A DNA stretch of 55,781 nucleotides, filler included, from an uncultured bacterium (lineage in GTDB: Bacteria; DYJV01): assembly GCA_964543655.1 (NCBI GenBank). It is 6 parts of 5 records of this genome, joined end to end, with 100 filler letters (N's around TTAATTAATTAA, not from the genome) between each part and the next. Parts side by side here need not be neighbours in the genome. Positions count along the whole stretch, not along the records: positions 50,353 to 55,781 come from CAZIZE010000100.1; 5 more parts are not named here. The stretch is one strand, 5' to 3'. Shown piece after piece: positions 16,046-55,781 of this stretch (positions within the stretch are counted from its first letter, which is position 1; every line of letters begins with the position of its first letter). The position numbers and the translations under genes were made by a program. Below the pieces are notes generated by a model that saw only the letters and a program-made list of their open reading frames with translations, did no database searches and was not told the origin of the DNA.

Positions 16046-16582
16046 CTATAAATTAAATTTTTCAAGAACAAAAAAGAGAATTAATACAAAAATTACAAAT
16101 GGTATTATTATATACCATGGATTTAGAATATTTAAAAGAGCTGGAAAAGTCATCTTTCCCATGTATCCAATCTTTAAAAATGATACTCTCAATGAATTAT
16201 AAACCTCACCATAAATTAGAGCCCCTAAAAAAATTCCTATTAATCCCCAGAATGAATCTAATCTGCCTTCACCTAAGGCAGCAGCTGATTGACCCGGTCA
16301 GCCACCAAGCAGAGCAAAACCAACACCAAATATAGTGCCACCAACTGCAATTGCTGCAATTCTAACAGGAGAAATATACCTCAGAATATTTGGTATCATA
16401 CCTGCCTCAATCATAATATATAGACCAACCATTGCTACTACAATAGCACTCATCATAAATTTGATTACTGTAAAATCTTTAAATCTCAACACATTAACAA
16501 TGGTTTCAAACTTGGTAATTTGAATCCTTTGAAGCAAAAATCCAAAGACTATCCCTATTAAAATAGGAGTTAAATAATGCAT
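16046..16582 (-). CDS. YeeE/YedE (DUF395) sulfur-compound transporter family protein, probable selenoprotein (UGA at 16298-16300, residue 95 of 178)
   Basis: The frame stays open for 83 codons past TGA: FALLGG-U-PGQSAAALGEGRLDSFWGLIGIFLGALIY...EKFNL*. TGA occupies the Cys position of the family GxCPG motif, and a SECIS-like hairpin follows. Confidence 0.88.
16263..16281 (-). promoter_or_regulatory. Candidate bacterial SECIS element (yeeE)
   Basis: CTGCCTT-AGGTG-AAGGCAG stem-loop. The loop begins 23 nt after UGA, with G at loop position 2. Confidence 0.75.
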
Positions 16583-17131: not shown

Positions 17132-17231
17132 NNNNNNNNNNNNNNNNNNNNNNNNNNNNNNNNNNNNNNNNNNNNTTAATTAATTAANNNNNNNNNNNNN
17201 NNNNNNNNNNNNNNNNNNNNNNNNNNNNNNN
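17132..17231. other. Artificial contig linker
   Basis: N44-TTAATTAATTAA-N44, giving stops in all six frames. Confidence 0.98.
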
Positions 17232-20576: not shown

Positions 20577-20676
20577 NNNNNNNNNNNNNNNNNNNNNNNN
20601 NNNNNNNNNNNNNNNNNNNNTTAATTAATTAANNNNNNNNNNNNNNNNNNNNNNNNNNNNNNNNNNNNNNNNNNNN
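20577..20676. other. Artificial contig linker
   Basis: N-TTAATTAATTAA-N. Confidence 0.98.
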
Positions 20677-23819: not shown

Positions 23820-25044
23820 AGTAAAAATTGCTATCAAAAATAGCTACTGTAACTTTGTCACCTTTTTTTACAAATGGCTCGCCTTCGTCAATAATAATAA
23901 AGCAGTTGCCTTTTTTCATTGATGATAAAATACCTGAACCTTGCGCACCTGTAGTTGTAACAAAGAATTTATTATCTTTTAAATGGAGAATACCTCTTAT
24001 AAATTCACATCTAACATCTTTTCTTTTTATATTATCTTGAAGGATGGCTTTGAATCTTCTAAGAAAGAGCTCTTTTTTCCCTGACATTTTTCTAATTGCA
24101 GGTAAGATAAAGTTGTAAAAGCTTGACATTGTAGAAACTGGATTGCCCGGGATACCAAAAAATAGAGTTTTGCCCTTTTTAGCAAAAAATAGAGGCTTGC
24201 CAGGTTTTACTCTAACTCTCCAAAAAATAGGCTCAAAGCCAAGTTCAATAATAATATCTTTGACAAAATCGTATTCTCCCATTGACACTCCACCTGTTGA
24301 AAGTATAATATCAGAGTTGAGAGAATTTTTTATTTTTTCTTTTAAAATTTCTGGATTATCATCAATAATTTCTGAAAAGCAGGCATTAAGCCCCTGCTGA
24401 CTTAGCATTGCTCTCAAAGTAAAGCCGTTGGAGTTTCGTATTTTACCTTTAGATAGTTCTTCATCAATATCAACAATTTCATCACCAGTTACAAGGACTG
24501 ATACAACAGGTTGCTTAAAAACTTTTATATAACTCCTGCCAAATGAAGATAAAATCCCAAAAACAGCAGGAGTAATAGTGGTACCATTTTTTATAACTTT
24601 TTCACCTTTTTTTATATCCTCTCCTGCTTTTCTTAGATCATTGTTCTCTTTTATATGCTCAAAAATATAGACAAAATTATTCTCCTCTTTTGTAATTTCT
24701 TTCCTTGCAATACAATTTGCACCTTCTGGCACTTTAGCGCCTGTCATTATTTTAACAGCTTCTCCCTTGCCAACTGATTTGTTAAAAAGAGAGCCTGCTG
24801 AAACTGTACCTAAAATTTTTAGTTTAACAGGATTATTTTCACTGGCACCAACTGTATCTTCACTTCGTAGAGCAAAACCATCCATAGCAGAATTATCATA
24901 TGGTGGGATATTGTATGAAGCAATAATATCTTCAGCTATTGTCCTATTTAATGCATCTGATAGAAATATTTTTTCAGTTGTAAGTGTCTCGCTATTTTGA
25001 AGTATAAGCTTAATTGCTTCTTTAACTGATATGTCTTTAAGCAT
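23812..25044 (-). CDS. moeA: Molybdopterin molybdotransferase
   Basis: Motifs SAMDGFA, IMTGA, TGDEI, TGGVSMGEYD, KPGKP and PGNPVS. Confidence 0.95.
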   Translation of the reverse strand: MLKDISVKEAIKLILQNSETLTTEKIFLSDALNRTIAEDIIASYNIPPYDNSAMDGFALRSEDTVGASENNPVKLKILGTVSAGSLFNKSVGKGEAVKIMTGAKVPEGANCIARKEITKEENNFVYIFEHIKENNDLRKAGEDIKKGEKVIKNGTTITPAVFGILSSFGRSYIKVFKQPVVSVLVTGDEIVDIDEELSKGKIRNSNGFTLRAMLSQQGLNACFSEIIDDNPEILKEKIKNSLNSDIILSTGGVSMGEYDFVKDIIIELGFEPIFWRVRVKPGKPLFFAKKGKTLFFGIPGNPVSTMSSFYNFILPAIRKMSGKKELFLRRFKAILQDNIKRKDVRCEFIRGILHLKDNKFFVTTTGAQGSGILSSMKKGNCFIIIDEGEPFVKKGDKVTVAIFDSNFYYE

Positions 25045-38907: not shown

Positions 38908-39007
38908 NNNNNNNNNNNNNNNNNNNNNNNNNNNNNNNNNNNNNNNNNNNNTTAATTAATTAANNNNNNNNNNNNNNNNNNNNNNNNNNNNNNNNNNNNN
39001 NNNNNNN
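38908..39007. other. Artificial contig linker
   Basis: N-TTAATTAATTAA-N. Confidence 0.98.
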
Positions 39008-42912: not shown

Positions 42913-43012
42913 NNNNNNNNNNNNNNNNNNNNNNNNNNNNNNNNNNNNNNNNNNNNTTAATTAATTAANNNNNNNNNNNNNNNNNNNNNNNNNNNNNNNN
43001 NNNNNNNNNNNN
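42913..43012. other. Artificial contig linker
   Basis: N-TTAATTAATTAA-N. Confidence 0.98.
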
Positions 43013-50252: not shown

Positions 50253-50352
50253 NNNNNNNNNNNNNNNNNNNNNNNNNNNNNNNNNNNNNNNNNNNNTTAA
50301 TTAATTAANNNNNNNNNNNNNNNNNNNNNNNNNNNNNNNNNNNNNNNNNNNN
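50253..50352. other. Artificial contig linker
   Basis: N-TTAATTAATTAA-N. Confidence 0.98.
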
Positions 50353-50392
50353 TTTAATTGATTTATTTTGAAATTTCCTTTATTACCTCTTT

Positions 50393-51751
50393 ATGAATGC
50401 TTTTCTAATTGCTGGAACTAATAGCGGCGTAGGTAAAACAACTATCACTCTTGCATTAATATCATACTTCTCCAATCAGGGACTTTCTGTTCAACCTTAT
50501 AAAGTTGGACCTGATTTCATTGATCCAGGTTATCATAAATTATTTAGTGGTAATATCTCCATTAATCTTGACAGTTTTATGCTATCCAAATCTTACAATA
50601 TTTCAAATTTTAATCAATATTCATATAATAAAGATATTGCTATTGTTGAAGGTGTTATGGGACTTTTTGATGGTTTTAGTGGAAAAAATGAGAGGGGAAG
50701 CTCAGCTCAAATTGCAAAATGGCTGAATCTGCCTGTTATTTTAATTGTTAATTCTCAGAGTATAGCAAGAAGTGTTGCTGCAATTGTTTATGGGTTTGAG
50801 AATTTTGACAAAGATTTAAAAATTGCTGGTATAATTTTTAACAATGTTAGTAGTGAAAATCATTTTTCTTATTTAAAAGAAAGTGTTGAAAAGTATTGTA
50901 AATCAAAAGTGTTAGGATTTTTCAAAAAAGGAGATTTACCTTCTATACCTTCAAGACATCTTGGTCTTTTAACTGTTGAAGATAATGCTGAGTTTATTAA
51001 TTACAAAAAATCTCTTTCAGAAATTGTTGAAAAAAGGATCAATATTAAAAAATTACTTGGTATAACAAAATATACAGTTTCAAAGCCTCATTTAAGTAAT
51101 AAAATTAATAAAAAACTAAAAGTTGCTGTTGCTAAAGATAAAGCTTTCTCATTTTATTATGAAGATAATTTAAAATTAATTGAAAAGTATGGAGGTGAAA
51201 TAACTTTTTTTTCTCCTTTAAAAGATAAAAAATTACCAGATAATATTGAAGCTATATATTTAGGTGGTGGTTATCCTGAAATTTATGCTGAAACTCTCAG
51301 TAAAAATAGAGTATTAATAGAGCAGATAAAAAATTTTTCTGAGAATAGAGGCTTTATATATGCTGAATGTGGTGGTTTTATATATCTTACAGAAGGTGTT
51401 ATTGATTTTAATGGAAAATTTTTCCCATTAGTTGGTATTTTTAAAGACAGGGCGATTATGCAGAAAAGATTAAGGTCATTAGGATATGCAGAGGTGACTT
51501 TTACTGAAAAAACTTTTTTTGGAGAATTTGGCACAAAAATAAAGGGCCATGAATTTCATTATTCATATTTAGAGAATGGAGGAGAAGCTTTAAAAAAAAT
51601 CTATAATGTGAAAATGAGAAAATTTCCAGAAGGCAAAGCTGAAGGTTTTTTATATAAAAACACTCTTGGCAGCTACATTCACCTGCATTTTGGGAGTAAT
51701 AAAAAAGTAGTAAAAAATTTTATAGAAACAATAGCGAATAAAGGAGGATAA
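50393..51751 (+). CDS. cbiA: Cobyrinate a,c-diamide synthase
   Basis: Motifs SGVGKTT, KVGPDFIDP, EGVMGLFDG, SRHLGL, AECGG and GHEFHYS. Confidence 0.95.
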   Translation: MNAFLIAGTNSGVGKTTITLALISYFSNQGLSVQPYKVGPDFIDPGYHKLFSGNISINLDSFMLSKSYNISNFNQYSYNKDIAIVEGVMGLFDGFSGKNERGSSAQIAKWLNLPVILIVNSQSIARSVAAIVYGFENFDKDLKIAGIIFNNVSSENHFSYLKESVEKYCKSKVLGFFKKGDLPSIPSRHLGLLTVEDNAEFINYKKSLSEIVEKRINIKKLLGITKYTVSKPHLSNKINKKLKVAVAKDKAFSFYYEDNLKLIEKYGGEITFFSPLKDKKLPDNIEAIYLGGGYPEIYAETLSKNRVLIEQIKNFSENRGFIYAECGGFIYLTEGVIDFNGKFFPLVGIFKDRAIMQKRLRSLGYAEVTFTEKTFFGEFGTKIKGHEFHYSYLENGGEALKKIYNVKMRKFPEGKAEGFLYKNTLGSYIHLHFGSNKKVVKNFIETIANKGG

Positions 51752-51752
51752 A

Positions 51753-53096
51753 ATGAACAGATATGCAGAAGAAGTTCTATCATATTTAAAGAAAAAATAT
51801 TTCTGGGAAAAAGAATTCTTACAGGCTGTTGAAGAGGTTTTTAATTCAATAAGTTTGCTTCTTGATAGGGACCCAAAATATAAAAAGGAAAAAATTCTTG
51901 AAAGGCTTGTTGAGCCAGAGAGGGTTATTATGTTCAGAGTACCCTGGAGAGACGATAGAGGAGAGATTCATGTTAACACAGGATATAGAGTAGAATTTAA
52001 TAGTACACTTGGTCCATATAAAGGTGGGTTAAGATTTCATCCATCTGTTAATTTAAGTATTTTAAAATTTCTTGGCTTTGACCAAATTTTTAAAAATAGC
52101 CTTACTGGATTAATGATGGGTGGTGGAAAAGGTGGAAGTGATTTTGACTATAAAGGTAAATCAGACTCAGAAATGATGAACTTCTGCCAAAGCTTTATGA
52201 CAGAGCTTTCAAAGCATATAGGAGCCCATACAGATGTTCCAGCTGGAGATATTGGTGTTGGTGCAAGGGAAATTGGTTATCTTTTTGGACAATATAAAAG
52301 ATTGAGAAATAGTTTTGAAGGAGTTTTAACTGGTAAAGGGATAAATTGGGGTGGTAGCTATTTAAGACCAGAAGCAACAGGGTTTGGTGTGGTATACTTT
52401 ACAAATGAAGTTTTAAAAATTAGAGATGATTCTTTTGATAAAAAAAGAGTTCTTATATCTGGTGCTGGAAACGTTGCTCTGCATGCTGCTTTAAAGGTTA
52501 TTGAGCTTGGCGGAAAAGTTTTATCTCTTTCAGATTCAGATGGCTCTATAATTGATGAAGATGGAATAGATATGGAAAAATGGGAATATATTTATGAGTT
52601 AAAAGTTTACAGAAGAGGTAGAATTAAAGAGTACGCAGAAAAATTTGGAAAAAAATATTTTCAAGGCGCACGTCCATGGGGGTTAACCAAAGCTGATATT
52701 GCACTTCCATGTGCAACTGAAAATGAAATTAATCTTGACAATGCTAAAGCACTTGTTGAAAATGGTTGCTTCTGTGTTATTGAAGGTGCTAATATGCCAA
52801 CCACTCTTGATGCTGTTAAATATTTTCAGGAAAATAATATAATATTTGCACCTGGAATTGCAGCAAATGCTGGTGGAGTAGGTGTTTCAGGACTGGAAAT
52901 GGCTCAAAACAGTATGATGCTACAATGGAGTAAAGAGGAAGTTGATGAAAGATTAAAAAGAATGATGGCTCACATCCATTCTCAATGCCTTCAGGTAGCA
53001 GAAGAAATGGGGACACCAGCAAATTATGTAAATGGTGCAAATATTGCCGGTTTCAAAAAAGTGGCAGATGCAATGATTGAGCAAGGATTAGTTTAA
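51753..53096 (+). CDS. gdhA: NADP-specific glutamate dehydrogenase
   Basis: Motifs GPYKGGLRFH, GGGKGGSDF, PAGDIGVG, RPEATG and EGANMP. Confidence 0.96.
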   Translation: MNRYAEEVLSYLKKKYFWEKEFLQAVEEVFNSISLLLDRDPKYKKEKILERLVEPERVIMFRVPWRDDRGEIHVNTGYRVEFNSTLGPYKGGLRFHPSVNLSILKFLGFDQIFKNSLTGLMMGGGKGGSDFDYKGKSDSEMMNFCQSFMTELSKHIGAHTDVPAGDIGVGAREIGYLFGQYKRLRNSFEGVLTGKGINWGGSYLRPEATGFGVVYFTNEVLKIRDDSFDKKRVLISGAGNVALHAALKVIELGGKVLSLSDSDGSIIDEDGIDMEKWEYIYELKVYRRGRIKEYAEKFGKKYFQGARPWGLTKADIALPCATENEINLDNAKALVENGCFCVIEGANMPTTLDAVKYFQENNIIFAPGIAANAGGVGVSGLEMAQNSMMLQWSKEEVDERLKRMMAHIHSQCLQVAEEMGTPANYVNGANIAGFKKVADAMIEQGLV

Positions 53097-53121
53097 TTTT
53101 ATATTAAAGGAGGCGATTAAC

Positions 53122-54282
53122 TTGAAGAGGATTTACCTTGATTATAATGCCACCACTCCTGTGCATATAGAAGTTTTTAAAGCAATGAAACCTTATCTTA
53201 CTGAGAAATGGGGCAATCCATCAAGTGCCCATTGGGCAGGTGAATCCATTAAAGAAGATATTGACAATGCAAGAAAAAGTATAGCAACCTCTCTTAATTG
53301 CAACAGCAATGAAATATTTTTTACATCCTGTGGTACTGAAAGTAACAATTGGGTGATTAAATCAGTAGTGCTAAATTCAAATAAAAAGAATAAACATATT
53401 ATAACAACCAAAGTTGAGCACCCTGCTGTACTTGAAACTTGTAAGTTTTTAGAAAAGATAGGTATTAAAATAACATACCTAAATGTTAATGAACATGGGA
53501 ATTTAAATATAGAAGAATTTGAAAATGCAATTAATGAAGATACTATTTTAATTTCAATTATGATGGCCAACAATGAAACTGGCGTTACCTTTCCTATTGA
53601 AAAACTTGCTGAAATTGCTGCTAAATACAATATCCCTTTTCATACTGATGCTGTTCAAGCTTATGGAAAAGAAATAATTGATTTAAAAAATCTAAAAGTT
53701 GACTTTCTTTCAATTTCAGGACACAAAGTTTATTCACCAAAAGGAATAGGTATTTTATTTATTAGAGAAAATAATATAATAGAACCATTAATACATGGTG
53801 GGGGACAGGAAAAGGGTTTGAGAAGTGGCACTGAAAATGTTCCATACATTATAGGTTTGGGGAAATCTGCTGAAATTATTATGGAAAATTTTAAAAATAA
53901 AAAATCGAAATTAATAAAAAAGATTAGAGATAGGTTTGAAAAATTTCTATTTAATAATTTGGAAAATATTTCCATTAATGGTGATATTAACCATAGACTT
54001 CCAAATACTACAAATATCTGTTTTAAAAACATTGAAACCTCTGCTCTTATTAAAGCATTATCAATAGAAGGTATTGCTGTTTCAGCAGGTTCTGCATGTG
54101 CATCACATAAAGAATCTTTTTCCCATGTTCTTAAAGCAATGGGTAAAACTAAAATGGAGGCTTTAAGCTCCATTAGAGTTAGCCTTGGAGATTATTCAGA
54201 AGAAAGTGAAGTTCTTTATGCAGCAGAGCGGATTGTTCACTGGGTTAAAAGGTTACGTCAATTTTCTCCTGAAAAAAGTTAA
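53122..54282 (+). CDS. Group I cysteine desulfurase (IscS/NifS family)
   Basis: Motifs YLDYNATTP, HTDAVQ, SGHK, GGGQEKGLRSGTEN and SAGSAC. Confidence 0.93.
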   Translation: MKRIYLDYNATTPVHIEVFKAMKPYLTEKWGNPSSAHWAGESIKEDIDNARKSIATSLNCNSNEIFFTSCGTESNNWVIKSVVLNSNKKNKHIITTKVEHPAVLETCKFLEKIGIKITYLNVNEHGNLNIEEFENAINEDTILISIMMANNETGVTFPIEKLAEIAAKYNIPFHTDAVQAYGKEIIDLKNLKVDFLSISGHKVYSPKGIGILFIRENNIIEPLIHGGGQEKGLRSGTENVPYIIGLGKSAEIIMENFKNKKSKLIKKIRDRFEKFLFNNLENISINGDINHRLPNTTNICFKNIETSALIKALSIEGIAVSAGSACASHKESFSHVLKAMGKTKMEALSSIRVSLGDYSEESEVLYAAERIVHWVKRLRQFSPEKS

Positions 54283-54325
54283 GATTAAACTTTACATAAA
54301 TTTTTTTTTAATATATATTGTGTAT

Positions 54326-55303
54326 ATGGATGTTGCTGACTTATTTTCTCCAATAATAGAAGATTTACAAGAAGTTGAAAAAGCGATTTTTAAACATCTT
54401 GATAGTGAAATAAAACTTATTCCTACTATATGTGAACATATTTTAGGTAGTGGTGGCAAGAGGCTAAGACCAGCACTATTGCTTTTATCAGCAAAGCTTT
54501 TTGATTATAGAGGAGAGGAGCGTATCCCTCTTTCTGTAGCAGTTGAATATATTCACACAGCTACTCTTCTCCATGATGATGTTGTTGACAATTCTGTTCT
54601 TAGGCGGGGTAAAAAATCTGCCAATTCTATTTGGGGAAATGAAGCAAGTGTTTTAGTAGGTGACTTTTTATTTGCCAAAGCTTTTATACTAATGGTGGGA
54701 TGTAACAATTTAGACATTCTTGGGCTATTATCCAATGCTACAGGTGATTTAGCACAAGGAGAAATTTTTGAACTTGTGAAAACAGGTGATATTAATACAT
54801 CCATTAATGATTACTTTAAAATTATTGAAAAAAAGACAGCTGTGTTATTTTCAGCAGCATGTGAAATAGGTGCTATTTTAGCAAACCAAAGTATTAATAC
54901 AAGAAAGGCATTAAATAATTTTGGCAAAAATATAGGAATAGCTTTTCAATTAGTTGATGATGCCCTTGATTATATTTCCACAGACAATGTTCTCGGGAAA
55001 AAAATCGGTACAGATTTAGAAGAAGGTAAAGTTACCTATCCATTAATCACTGCTTTGAAAAATTCTTCATGCAAAGAAGAGTATGAAAGAGCAAAAGATA
55101 TATTTTTTAAAGATGATCACACAAAAGAAGAGATAGATTATTTAAAAAGCTTTGTTATAAAAAATAAAGGCATAGAATCAACCATTGAAAGTGCCAATGA
55201 ATATATTAATAAAGCAAAAGAGAATCTTACTGATTTTAAAAATAGTGAAGTAAAAGATTCTCTGTTAAAATTAGCAGATTTTATAGTAAAAAGGAGATTT
55301 TAA
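54326..55303 (+). CDS. ispB: Polyprenyl diphosphate synthase (IspB/HepT-like)
   Basis: Motifs GGKRLRP, LLHDDVVD..RRG and FQLVDDALD. Start moved to ATG 54326. Confidence 0.9.
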   Translation: MDVADLFSPIIEDLQEVEKAIFKHLDSEIKLIPTICEHILGSGGKRLRPALLLLSAKLFDYRGEERIPLSVAVEYIHTATLLHDDVVDNSVLRRGKKSANSIWGNEASVLVGDFLFAKAFILMVGCNNLDILGLLSNATGDLAQGEIFELVKTGDINTSINDYFKIIEKKTAVLFSAACEIGAILANQSINTRKALNNFGKNIGIAFQLVDDALDYISTDNVLGKKIGTDLEEGKVTYPLITALKNSSCKEEYERAKDIFFKDDHTKEEIDYLKSFVIKNKGIESTIESANEYINKAKENLTDFKNSEVKDSLLKLADFIVKRRF

Positions 55304-55304
55304 A

Positions 55305-55472
55305 ATTAACAAAAGTACTATTATTTATATTATTGCAGGAATAATTTTTGGATTAATTTATGGTTTTATTTTAAGAAAGATGAAAAGCGGGTGAGCATGT
55401 GCACAGTTTCCCGTTTGGCTAATGGGATTAATAGGTGGAGTTTTAGGTTTTTTACTATCAAATAAGCCTTAA
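55305..55472 (+). CDS. Unannotated 55-aa two-TM membrane protein, probable selenoprotein (U30-x-C32), ATT start
   Basis: AGGAG-N8-ATT, giving MNKSTIIYIIAGIIFGLIYGFILRKMKSG-U-ACAQFPVWLMGLIGGVLGFLLSNKP*. TGA at 55392-55394, hairpin at 55409-55427. Confidence 0.7.
55409..55427 (+). promoter_or_regulatory. Candidate bacterial SECIS element
   Basis: TCCCGTT-TGGCT-AATGGGA. The loop begins 21 nt after UGA, with G at loop position 2. Confidence 0.6.
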
Positions 55473-55550
55473 TTTCAGCTCCTGTTTTACTTTTGTTCCC
55501 TGCTTTATGAATGGTATAAGAAAATTTATTAATTTTAAAAGGAGGAATTA

Positions 55551-55781
55551 ATGAGTGAAAAAGTTATACATGTAACAGATGATTCTTTTAAGGATGTTGT
55601 TTTAAATGCTGATAAACCTTCTCTTGTGGATTTTTGGGCATCTTGGTGTGGACCATGCCTTGCTCTTGCACCAGTAATAGATGATATTGCAGAAGAATAC
55701 TCAGATAAAATTAATATTTGCAAATTAAATGTTGATGAAAATCAGAAAACAGCTATGGAATATGGAATTAAAGGTATTCCT
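55551..55781 (+). CDS. trxA: Thioredoxin (runs off the window)
   Basis: Not in the ORF track. AGGAGG SD, then MSEKVIHVTDDSF...VDFWASWCGPC...KLNVDEN. Confidence 0.96.
   Translation, partial: MSEKVIHVTDDSFKDVVLNADKPSLVDFWASWCGPCLALAPVIDDIAEEYSDKINICKLNVDENQKTAMEYGIKGIP

Follow-up and report, generated by a model that had tools for sequence, protein, structure and literature searches.

The window analysed here, a stretch of 55,781 nucleotides (nt) from an uncultured bacterium of the lineage DYJV01 (assembly GCA_964543655.1), is joined from six parts of the genome, and its final piece (50353-55781, contig C100 of the assembly, CAZIZE010000100.1) carries three consecutive genes that encode a class-V aminotransferase, a polyprenyl diphosphate synthase (ispB) and a thioredoxin (trxA). 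In the apparent gap between ispB and trxA, an earlier note on this DNA had placed a hidden small membrane selenoprotein. This small gene, located wholly inside the final piece, is the subject of the present analysis. Runs of N at 17132-17231, 20577-20676, 38908-39007, 42913-43012 and 50253-50352 mark the joints between parts, and the order of genes on either side of a joint is not that of the genome. In all likelihood it is a real gene whose in-frame UGA is read as selenocysteine (Sec), a conclusion drawn from the conservation of the frame, its coding signal, a covarying hairpin behind the UGA and the presence of Sec machinery in the lineage.

The small gene between ispB and trxA

A frame of 55 codons runs through the gap (see the table). 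It translates as INKSTIIYIIAGIIFGLIYGFILRKMKSG-U-ACAQFPVWLMGLIGGVLGFLLSNKP-stop, where U denotes Sec, and is broken at the TGA when translation table 11 is applied. Its layout is that announced by the earlier note: two glycine-rich helices are joined by a loop, K-S-G-U-A-C, an ATT lies 8 nt after AGGAG, no ATG, GTG or TTG is found between the upstream in-frame stop and the first helix, and a hairpin with a stem of 7 base pairs (bp) and a G-containing loop is present 21 nt past the UGA. The ribosome-binding site of the small gene is embedded in the last codons of ispB, AGG AGA TTT TAA. With a predicted non-AUG start as well as an in-frame UGA, the gene is of a kind that standard gene callers overlook.

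Positions, in the window, of the small gene, its elements and other genes discussed in the text (SECIS, selenocysteine insertion sequence)
Feature	Position	Strand	Basis or remark
Small selenoprotein gene (predicted), 55 codons and TAA stop (55470-55472)	55305-55472	+	frame, conservation, coding signal
Predicted non-AUG start codon ATT	55305-55307	+	one base past ispB stop TAA
Helix 1 (residues 3-26)	55311-55382	+	AlphaFold2 model of 8-row alignment
TGA, predicted Sec codon, residue 30	55392-55394	+	same column in 8/8 sequences
TGT, Cys of U-x-C, residue 32	55398-55400	+	Cys at +2 in 6/8 sequences
Candidate SECIS hairpin, 7-bp stem 55409-15/55421-27, loop UGGCU 55416-20	55409-55427	+	RNAalifold, covariation
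Helix 2 (residues 37-52), Gly-rich	55413-55460	+	AlphaFold2 model
Upstream stop in small-gene frame	55287-55289	+	sequence
Shine-Dalgarno-like AGGAG	55292-55296	+	8 nt before ATT
ispB stop TAA	55301-55303	+	sequence
Polyprenyl diphosphate synthase (ispB-like)	54326-55303	+	Pfam PF00348, E 2.4e-73
trxA (WCGPC), cut by contig/window end	55551-55781	+	Pfam PF00085, E 1.9e-25
Class-V aminotransferase (cysteine desulfurase / selenocysteine lyase type)	53122-54282	+	directly upstream of ispB
YeeE/YedE-type (PF04143) half-size gene, one in-frame TGA (...LLGG-U-PGQSAAALGEG...)	~16067-16501	-	contig C94

Conservation and coding signal

A six-frame search of 41 genomes recovered a homologue with exactly one in-frame TGA in each of the six genomes available for the phylum, namely the own genome, a congeneric one, two others from its family and two more from its order. 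Matches from elsewhere lacked a TGA and had E values of 0.002 or more. A scan of metagenome contigs yielded five genuine loci, two of them with new distinct sequences, so that the comparison set comprised eight distinct sequences (six genomes and two metagenome contigs) with 47-70% identity to the window protein. The five relatives were recovered again when species genomes were scanned, along with a high-GC permease of the ATP-binding cassette type (L047), which had only a 13-residue stretch in common with the small protein and was rejected. Two further metagenome matches, L053 and L054, were discarded as unrelated.

The in-frame TGA occupies a single alignment column in all eight sequences and fourteen residues are invariant, distributed over both halves of the protein: G12, G16, Y19, G20, S28, U30, P36, W38, G41, I43, G44, G48, F49 and L50. 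Homologues conserved on both sides of the UGA, which the earlier note had proposed to look for, are thus present throughout the phylum genomes and in the two metagenome contigs. The genomic setting is equally stable, as in 8/8 loci the small gene has a polyprenyl synthase gene before it and trxA behind it, the latter starting 2-78 nt past the small-gene stop, and the polyprenyl synthase gene was found upstream in every one of the five relatives examined. The gene upstream of ispB is not constant and encodes an aminotransferase, an amidohydrolase or TauE; a class-V aminotransferase precedes ispB in two relatives as in the window, and not in the other three.

Purifying selection was observed on both sides of the TGA. 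In comparisons anchored at this codon (Nei-Gojobori method), the proportion of synonymous differences (pS) exceeded that of nonsynonymous ones (pN) in 28/28 pairs upstream (24 codons) and again in 28/28 pairs downstream (21 codons), where pN ranged from 0.02 to 0.31 and pS from 0.42 to 0.89. Downstream differences numbered 160, 59 and 323 at the first, second and third codon positions, respectively. Past the TGA, the eight-sequence alignment shows no conserved start codon, and this, together with the coding signal on both sides, indicates that both halves form one coding unit. The TGA is not an assembly error, as contigs of two public runs from different studies keep it unchanged; the sole difference among them within the gene is a C>T at 55419, a synonymous change in a Leu codon that falls in the hairpin loop.

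The earlier note had suggested looking for relatives with either TGA or Cys at this position beside trxA. TGA forms were found in all eight loci, but no close Cys form was detected when 1.84 billion representative proteins were searched with the profile; the only match, to 13 weak stretches of a repeat protein of 1483 residues, was spurious. A word-based protein search likewise gave no candidate of similar length, the shorter length range not having been searched. It is only at the level of distant homology that a Cys aligns with the UGA, where U stands opposite the invariant second Cys of DUF6132 (see below).

The candidate SECIS hairpin and the Sec machinery

When 63 nt around the TGA were aligned, RNAalifold found the hairpin unaided, pairing columns 24-30 with columns 36-42, which correspond to the two arms listed in the table. 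The hairpin is contained within the codons for P-V-W-L-M-G. Its pairing is realized in 85.7% of the cells, a share that drops to 27-54% once the 3' partners are displaced by one to three columns, and changes on both sides, hence compensatory, are seen in four of the seven pairs. In the clearest of these, the Pro codon contributes its free third base, whose partner is the last base of the codon that precedes an invariant Gly; this pair appears as C-G in three sequences, G-C in three and U-A in one, being unpaired in the remaining one. The covariation score was matched by 3/500 shuffles, a figure that comes from just eight related sequences of one small lineage, for which shuffles overstate significance.

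Bacterial SECIS elements are defined by a loop of 3-9 nt, a stem of 4-16 bp, a G within the first two loop bases, a distance of 16-37 nt between UGA and loop and a minimum free energy (MFE) of -7.5 kcal/mol or lower, according to the legend of one figure in a recent review (PMC13188914, Fig. 2 legend). All of these constraints, as worded in that legend, are respected by the small family, with a loop U-G-G-N-U of 5 nt, a stem of 6-7 bp, a spacing of 21 nt, a G at loop position 2 that is followed by another G, and fold energies of -8.8 to -19.1 kcal/mol in the six sequences folded. The selD genes of the five relatives display a like geometry, with a 7-bp stem and a small loop containing G-U. The earlier note had also pointed to a SECIS candidate of matching geometry in the YeeE-type gene of the window; read by eye, this hairpin has a 7-bp stem and a loop AGGUG located 23 nt past the UGA, and the MFE structure given by RNAfold differs from it. 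A second half-size YeeE/YedE-type gene, without TGA, adjoins the TGA-bearing one.

As for the machinery, selA (E 3.4e-152), selB (390.7 bits for a cut-off of 242) and a tRNA-Sec with anticodon TCA on contig C11 are present in the genome. Of the four components that the earlier note had named, three were therefore found in the genome itself, whereas selD did not exceed its cut-off in this assembly (94% complete, 102 contigs). A selD gene with its own single TGA is present in 5/5 relatives, and the missing copy probably lies in an assembly gap; the lineage possesses the Sec machinery. TGA closes 132 of the 1020 long stop-to-stop frames of this genome (29.7% GC) and is thus an ordinary stop codon there, and the invariant Trp of the small protein is encoded by TGG. 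A reassigned code in which TGA would specify Trp or Gly was rejected on stop-codon usage.

The start of translation

The aligned first codon is ATT in four sequences, ATC in one, ATA in two and ATG in one, and in all eight it is located one base past the ispB stop TAA and 7-8 nt past GGAG or AAGG. In the five sequences of the window's family, an in-frame stop occurs five codons upstream and no canonical start precedes helix 1, which must be translated because it is conserved as protein. Initiation at AUN, probably as reinitiation after termination of IspB, would be the simplest reading, and the arrangement of start and stop suggests termination-reinitiation coupling. In two relatives, L004 and L051, the junction of the small gene with trxA shows the same tight coupling as the one with ispB: trxA begins with TTG 2 nt past the small-gene stop, and a GGAGG is found inside the last small-gene codons (...S-G-G-stop).

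The ATT start proposed by the earlier note has hence gained in weight through a series of ATN codons at fixed spacing from GGAG, but it falls short of proof, a +1 slip being possible in 5/8 sequences. Judged from the aligned sequences, an AUN start is likely.

Protein architecture and topology

AlphaFold2, run on the eight-row alignment, modelled the protein as a helix (residues 3-26), a ten-residue loop (27-36) that contains U30 and C32, and a second helix (37-52), with a predicted local distance difference test (pLDDT) value of 70.8. Helix 1 carries a glycine zipper, G12-x3-G16-x3-G20, and the invariant Y19, while G41, G44, G48, F49 and L50 are the invariant residues of helix 2. The loop follows the basic pattern R/K-K-x-K-S-G-U-x-C, and acidic residues are absent from all eight sequences. 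The positive-inside rule links positive charge to the cytoplasmic side of membrane proteins. With 2-3 Lys/Arg in the loop and 1-3 in both tails combined, the charge counts modestly favour a loop at the cytoplasmic face, a margin so modest that it is also a weakness of this placement.

The position of Sec is fixed and that of its partner Cys is not. The Cys is found at +2 in six sequences, at -1 in L007 and L049, and at -5 in the canonical Sec-containing DUF6132 proteins described below; a fixed Sec with a moving partner would fit a selenenylsulfide pair and not a rigid metal site. Neither the single protein nor any of the eight members came near a cut-off in Pfam and NCBIfam, and weak matches to FeoB_associated, XapX, SA1362, LPXTG anchor and holin models were taken as hydrophobic noise.

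Relation to DUF6132

The layout had reminded the earlier note of small DUF6132-like Cys-loop proteins (PF19628). DUF6132 genes of other genomes encode proteins of the same size (~55 residues), with G-x3-G-x3-G in helix 1, a Gly-rich helix 2 and a loop of the form G-x-C-x-S-G-x-C-P-x-T-x-N-P. Comparison of the eight-sequence profile with DUF6132 by hhalign gave a probability of 94.4% (score 38.4) with seven members and 95.6% (score 41.4) with twenty, in both cases over 49 columns. With X at the Sec column, these values became 89.7% and 93.7% (scores 32.7 and 36.0) and the alignment was unchanged, whereas reversed alignments gave 26-28% with a score of 21. Column shuffles reached maxima of 16.9 (n=30), 33.6 (n=49 valid, one outlier, with 18.7 as the next value) and 18.3 (n=200), and none of the 30 + 249 valid shuffles attained the observed scores. 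In the alignment, the Gly zipper (G12, G16, G20) and the loop Pro coincide and Sec falls on the invariant second Cys.

Sec is also found within DUF6132 proper. Among 21 matches above the cut-off in 401 genomes, two have TGA at the second Cys, giving C-x4-U, with the loops C-S-G-G-V-U-A and C-A-G-G-A-U-P, each then followed by a hairpin. These two genes are L071 (G327:C196) and L072 (G260:C5), and the latter runs into a thioredoxin-like domain in which no CxxC was seen.

Several observations stand against this kinship. The DUF6132 Pfam model, whose gathering cut-off is 23.2 bits, fails on the small family, with a best E of 0.18 and only two of the eight members matching at E <= 10, and none of the six phylum genomes matches it in six-frame searches. 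The first Cys and the C-P motif of DUF6132 are missing, Lys or Tyr being found at the position of the first Cys and Ala or Gly in place of Pro, and the one shuffle out of 249 that scored 33.6 shows that Gly-rich hydrophobic profiles can align by chance. On balance, the small family is probably a distant relative of DUF6132, as far as profile comparison can tell. The two share their length, the helix-loop-helix fold with its zipper and Gly-rich second helix, a profile alignment over the full length, the coincidence of Sec with the invariant second Cys and a link to thioredoxin. They differ in that the small family has Lys for the first Cys and a partner Cys at +2 (U-x-C) or -1 (C-U), lacks C-P and T-x-N-P, has a strongly basic loop and a non-AUG start, is embedded in a fixed ispB-gene-trxA synteny and is found in one small uncultured lineage only. 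Because it fails the Pfam threshold and is without C-x4-C-P, the small gene is best filed as a probable relative of DUF6132 and not as a member. The resemblance noticed earlier thus stands as distant homology (94-96% in hhalign), but not as membership by the Pfam cut-off.

Link to thioredoxin and proposed mechanism

DUF6132 is itself associated with thioredoxin. A thioredoxin domain (PF00085) follows the hairpin in 36 of the 45 longer proteins matched by the DUF6132 profile, three of these adding a peroxiredoxin domain; a further three have a rhodanese and two a methyltransferase domain. The fused clusters, for the most part metagenome proteins that resemble each other, do not count as independent cases, which lowers the weight of these counts. 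Seven stand-alone DUF6132 genes were sampled: two adjoin thioredoxin-family genes, one adjoins a rhodanese gene and two lie near pyridine-nucleotide disulfide oxidoreductases. The three proteins with a peroxiredoxin domain (P0035, P0037 and P0044, ~360 residues) combine the DUF6132 hairpin with thioredoxin and AhpC/TSA peroxiredoxin and look like a complete membrane-tethered peroxide-reducing chain.

The small protein may accordingly work with TrxA, as the earlier note had supposed, and this idea is strengthened by the constant position of trxA as next gene and by the thioredoxin fusions of DUF6132. The geometry of these fusions is a difficulty for it. The fused thioredoxin sits at the end of helix 2. 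Should both helices be membrane-spanning, this end and the loop would be on different faces, and a direct contact between thioredoxin and loop does not match such an arrangement. The hairpin would then have to be re-entrant, or electrons would have to cross the membrane, or the hairpin would be mainly an anchor. For the small protein, the chances that it has a thioredoxin-coupled membrane redox role are judged to be even.

The explanation that accounts best for the data is that of a conserved 55-residue two-helix membrane selenoprotein whose Sec/Cys loop would likely be a redox site recycled by TrxA, to which a probability of roughly 0.8 is assigned. In a manner coupled to the termination of IspB, ribosomes would begin at AUU, or in relatives at AUC, AUA or AUG, at a distance of 7-8 nt from GGAG. 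The RNA hairpin of the P-V-W-x-x-G codons would be recognized by SelB carrying Sec-tRNA, and Sec would enter the chain as residue 30. Once made, the protein would fold as a helical hairpin with its basic loop at the cytoplasmic face, and within it a selenenylsulfide would link Sec30 to the nearby Cys (at +2, or at -1 in two of the sequences). Reduced by TrxA, this bond would let reducing power flow on to an oxidant in the membrane, such as a lipid or quinone species, or to a trans-membrane partner. A bolder version, which is a long shot, pictures the protein as a minimal electron relay. Its 55 residues, a glycine-zipper hairpin that would likely form oligomers and keep a Sec/Cys pair at the membrane or within it, would carry electrons from cytoplasmic thioredoxin to lipid or quinone oxidants or to the other side of the membrane, and so resemble CcdA/DsbD in function on a miniature scale; reinitiation at AUU, AUC or AUA, coupled to the termination of IspB, would be obligate and the only route of synthesis.

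Alternative explanations

Decoding of the UGA as Sec has to be weighed against the view that it is a true stop, or is decoded otherwise (reassigned code, near-cognate readthrough), and that the downstream conservation reflects an RNA element before trxA. We infer Sec insertion in an uncultured organism, the own assembly yields no selD, a 91-nt fold of the single sequence is unremarkable (z = -1.05, with 30/200 shuffles folding equally well), the best pairing of the relative L006 is displaced by one base, and an Rfam scan of 54800-55781 at E <= 10 returned only chance matches and no SECIS family. These points count against the Sec reading. An RNA element, however, would not account for the excess of pS over pN in every downstream pair, for the dominance of third-position changes or for the lack of any start codon kept after the UGA; TGA serves as a regular stop codon here, the Trp of the small protein is written TGG, and selA, selB and tRNA-Sec are present, as is selD in all five relatives. 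A stop or a non-Sec decoding is therefore very improbable, and with the TGA kept, purifying selection on both sides, a covarying hairpin that obeys the bacterial rules and the Sec machinery, the hidden membrane selenoprotein of the earlier note is borne out. The beginning of the gene invites another doubt, since AUU, AUC and AUA are weak initiators and all five sequences without a canonical start end ispB in TTT-TAA, which permits a +1 slip. In these five, the helical hairpin could be a C-terminal extension of the polyprenyl synthase made by a programmed +1 frameshift, in which the Phe-tRNA would slip on U-UUU before UAA, aided by GGAG as in prfB, to give a membrane-anchored, Sec-bearing IspB. 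GGAG followed by TTT-TAA is indeed present in all five, none has ATG, GTG or TTG before helix 1, the slipped frame continues directly into K-I-N-K..., and a membrane anchor would be sensible for an enzyme that makes lipid tails. Yet TTT-TAA is found in 6/8 sequences, so that the slippery codon is not kept in all members as it would be at a prfB-type site: the relatives L006 and L049 finish ispB with TAT-TAA, which is unable to slip, and L006 has an ATG exactly at the aligned start position. Moreover, the aligned codon is always ATN, as expected for a start and not for an internal codon, and its distance of 7-8 nt from GGAG is normal for initiation, whereas GGAG lies only 0-1 nt from the slip codon and the prfB frameshift site has 3 nt between its Shine-Dalgarno-like element and the slip codon. 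The frameshift is thus improbable.

The remaining explanation accepts a real selenoprotein and assigns it another task, the loop binding or handing over a soft metal or chalcogen (Cu, Hg, selenide, persulfide sulfur) and the linkage with trxA being operon housekeeping. Several catalogued membrane selenoproteins listed in the review's table (such as MerT-like, YeeE/YedE and the U-x-C efflux family SO_0444) are transporters or metal handlers (PMC13188914, Table 1). The DUF6132-rhodanese fusions (3/45 longer forms), the rhodanese gene adjoining one of the seven stand-alone loci, the upstream neighbours, which are a cysteine-desulfurase-type class-V aminotransferase or TauE, and weak matches of five of the eight members to the FeoB-associated Cys-rich membrane family all point the same way. 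These last matches are far below the cut-off, however (best E 0.037, 14.7 bits versus 27), the thioredoxin fusions (36/45) far exceed those with rhodanese, and it is ispB and trxA that are fixed in 8/8 loci while the upstream neighbour varies. A metal or chalcogen carrier is accordingly considered unlikely.

Comparison with catalogued selenoproteins

A 2026 review tabulates 119 prokaryotic selenoprotein families and subfamilies with domain accessions, and in that table PF19628 is not among them, nor is any two-helix micro-protein (PMC13188914, Table 1). Neither "DUF6132" nor "PF19628" occurs in one supplementary file of BSepDB or in four files of deep-Sep, and other supplements could still mention the family. 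Full-text literature searches found "DUF6132" only in an unrelated plant transporter paper and never together with "selenoprotein", and subscription journals could still cover it. In its decoding signals, the small gene resembles genes with a SECIS inside the open reading frame (fdhF type): measured by the bSECIS model of the review's figure, it has the UGA, the 21-nt spacing, G-G at loop positions 2-3 and a 7-bp stem within the coding sequence. It differs from them by its length of only 55 residues and by its absence from the 119 families of the table (PMC13188914).

YeeE/YedE (PF04143), MerT-like (PF02411) and SO_0444 Cu/Zn efflux proteins are the catalogued membrane families to which it may be compared, as far as the table goes (PMC13188914, Table 1); they too reside in the membrane and have their Sec within or close to a membrane segment, and SO_0444 also has a bare U-x-C. 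In contrast, these are large multi-pass transporters and have no sequence similarity to the small protein in Pfam and NCBIfam scans. Among eukaryotic proteins, SELENOK and SELENOS are short, membrane-anchored, contain a single Sec and are linked to thiol-redox systems, but they have one helix, a Sec near the C-terminus and a SECIS in the 3' untranslated region, and no homology is implied. What is new is a U-x-C / C-U branch, probably a divergent and uncatalogued relative of DUF6132, and not a new principle.

A thioredoxin fragment on another contig

An open frame of 79 residues on contig C7 of the own assembly (24381-24608, minus strand) encodes a thioredoxin fragment, matched to positions 28-103 of the profile. 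This could be the 3' remainder of the trxA that is truncated in the window, or a second trx gene.

Significance

This genome seems to have an empty gap before its main thioredoxin gene, where a small gene has been missed twice over by callers. Its recognition adds a membrane micro-protein to the bacterial selenoprotein inventory, and the occurrence of ATT, ATC, ATA and ATG at one aligned position would provide a clean natural case of non-AUG initiation coupled to an upstream stop. The finding is therefore of interest for selenoprotein catalogues, for small-protein annotation and for the study of non-AUG initiation. If the electron relay pictured above were true, the protein would be among the smallest selenoenzymes known. 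For the wider family, with Sec on the invariant Cys, a moving partner Cys (C-x4-U, U-x-C, C-U) and recurrent thioredoxin fusions, DUF6132 becomes a testable thioredoxin-linked membrane redox module.

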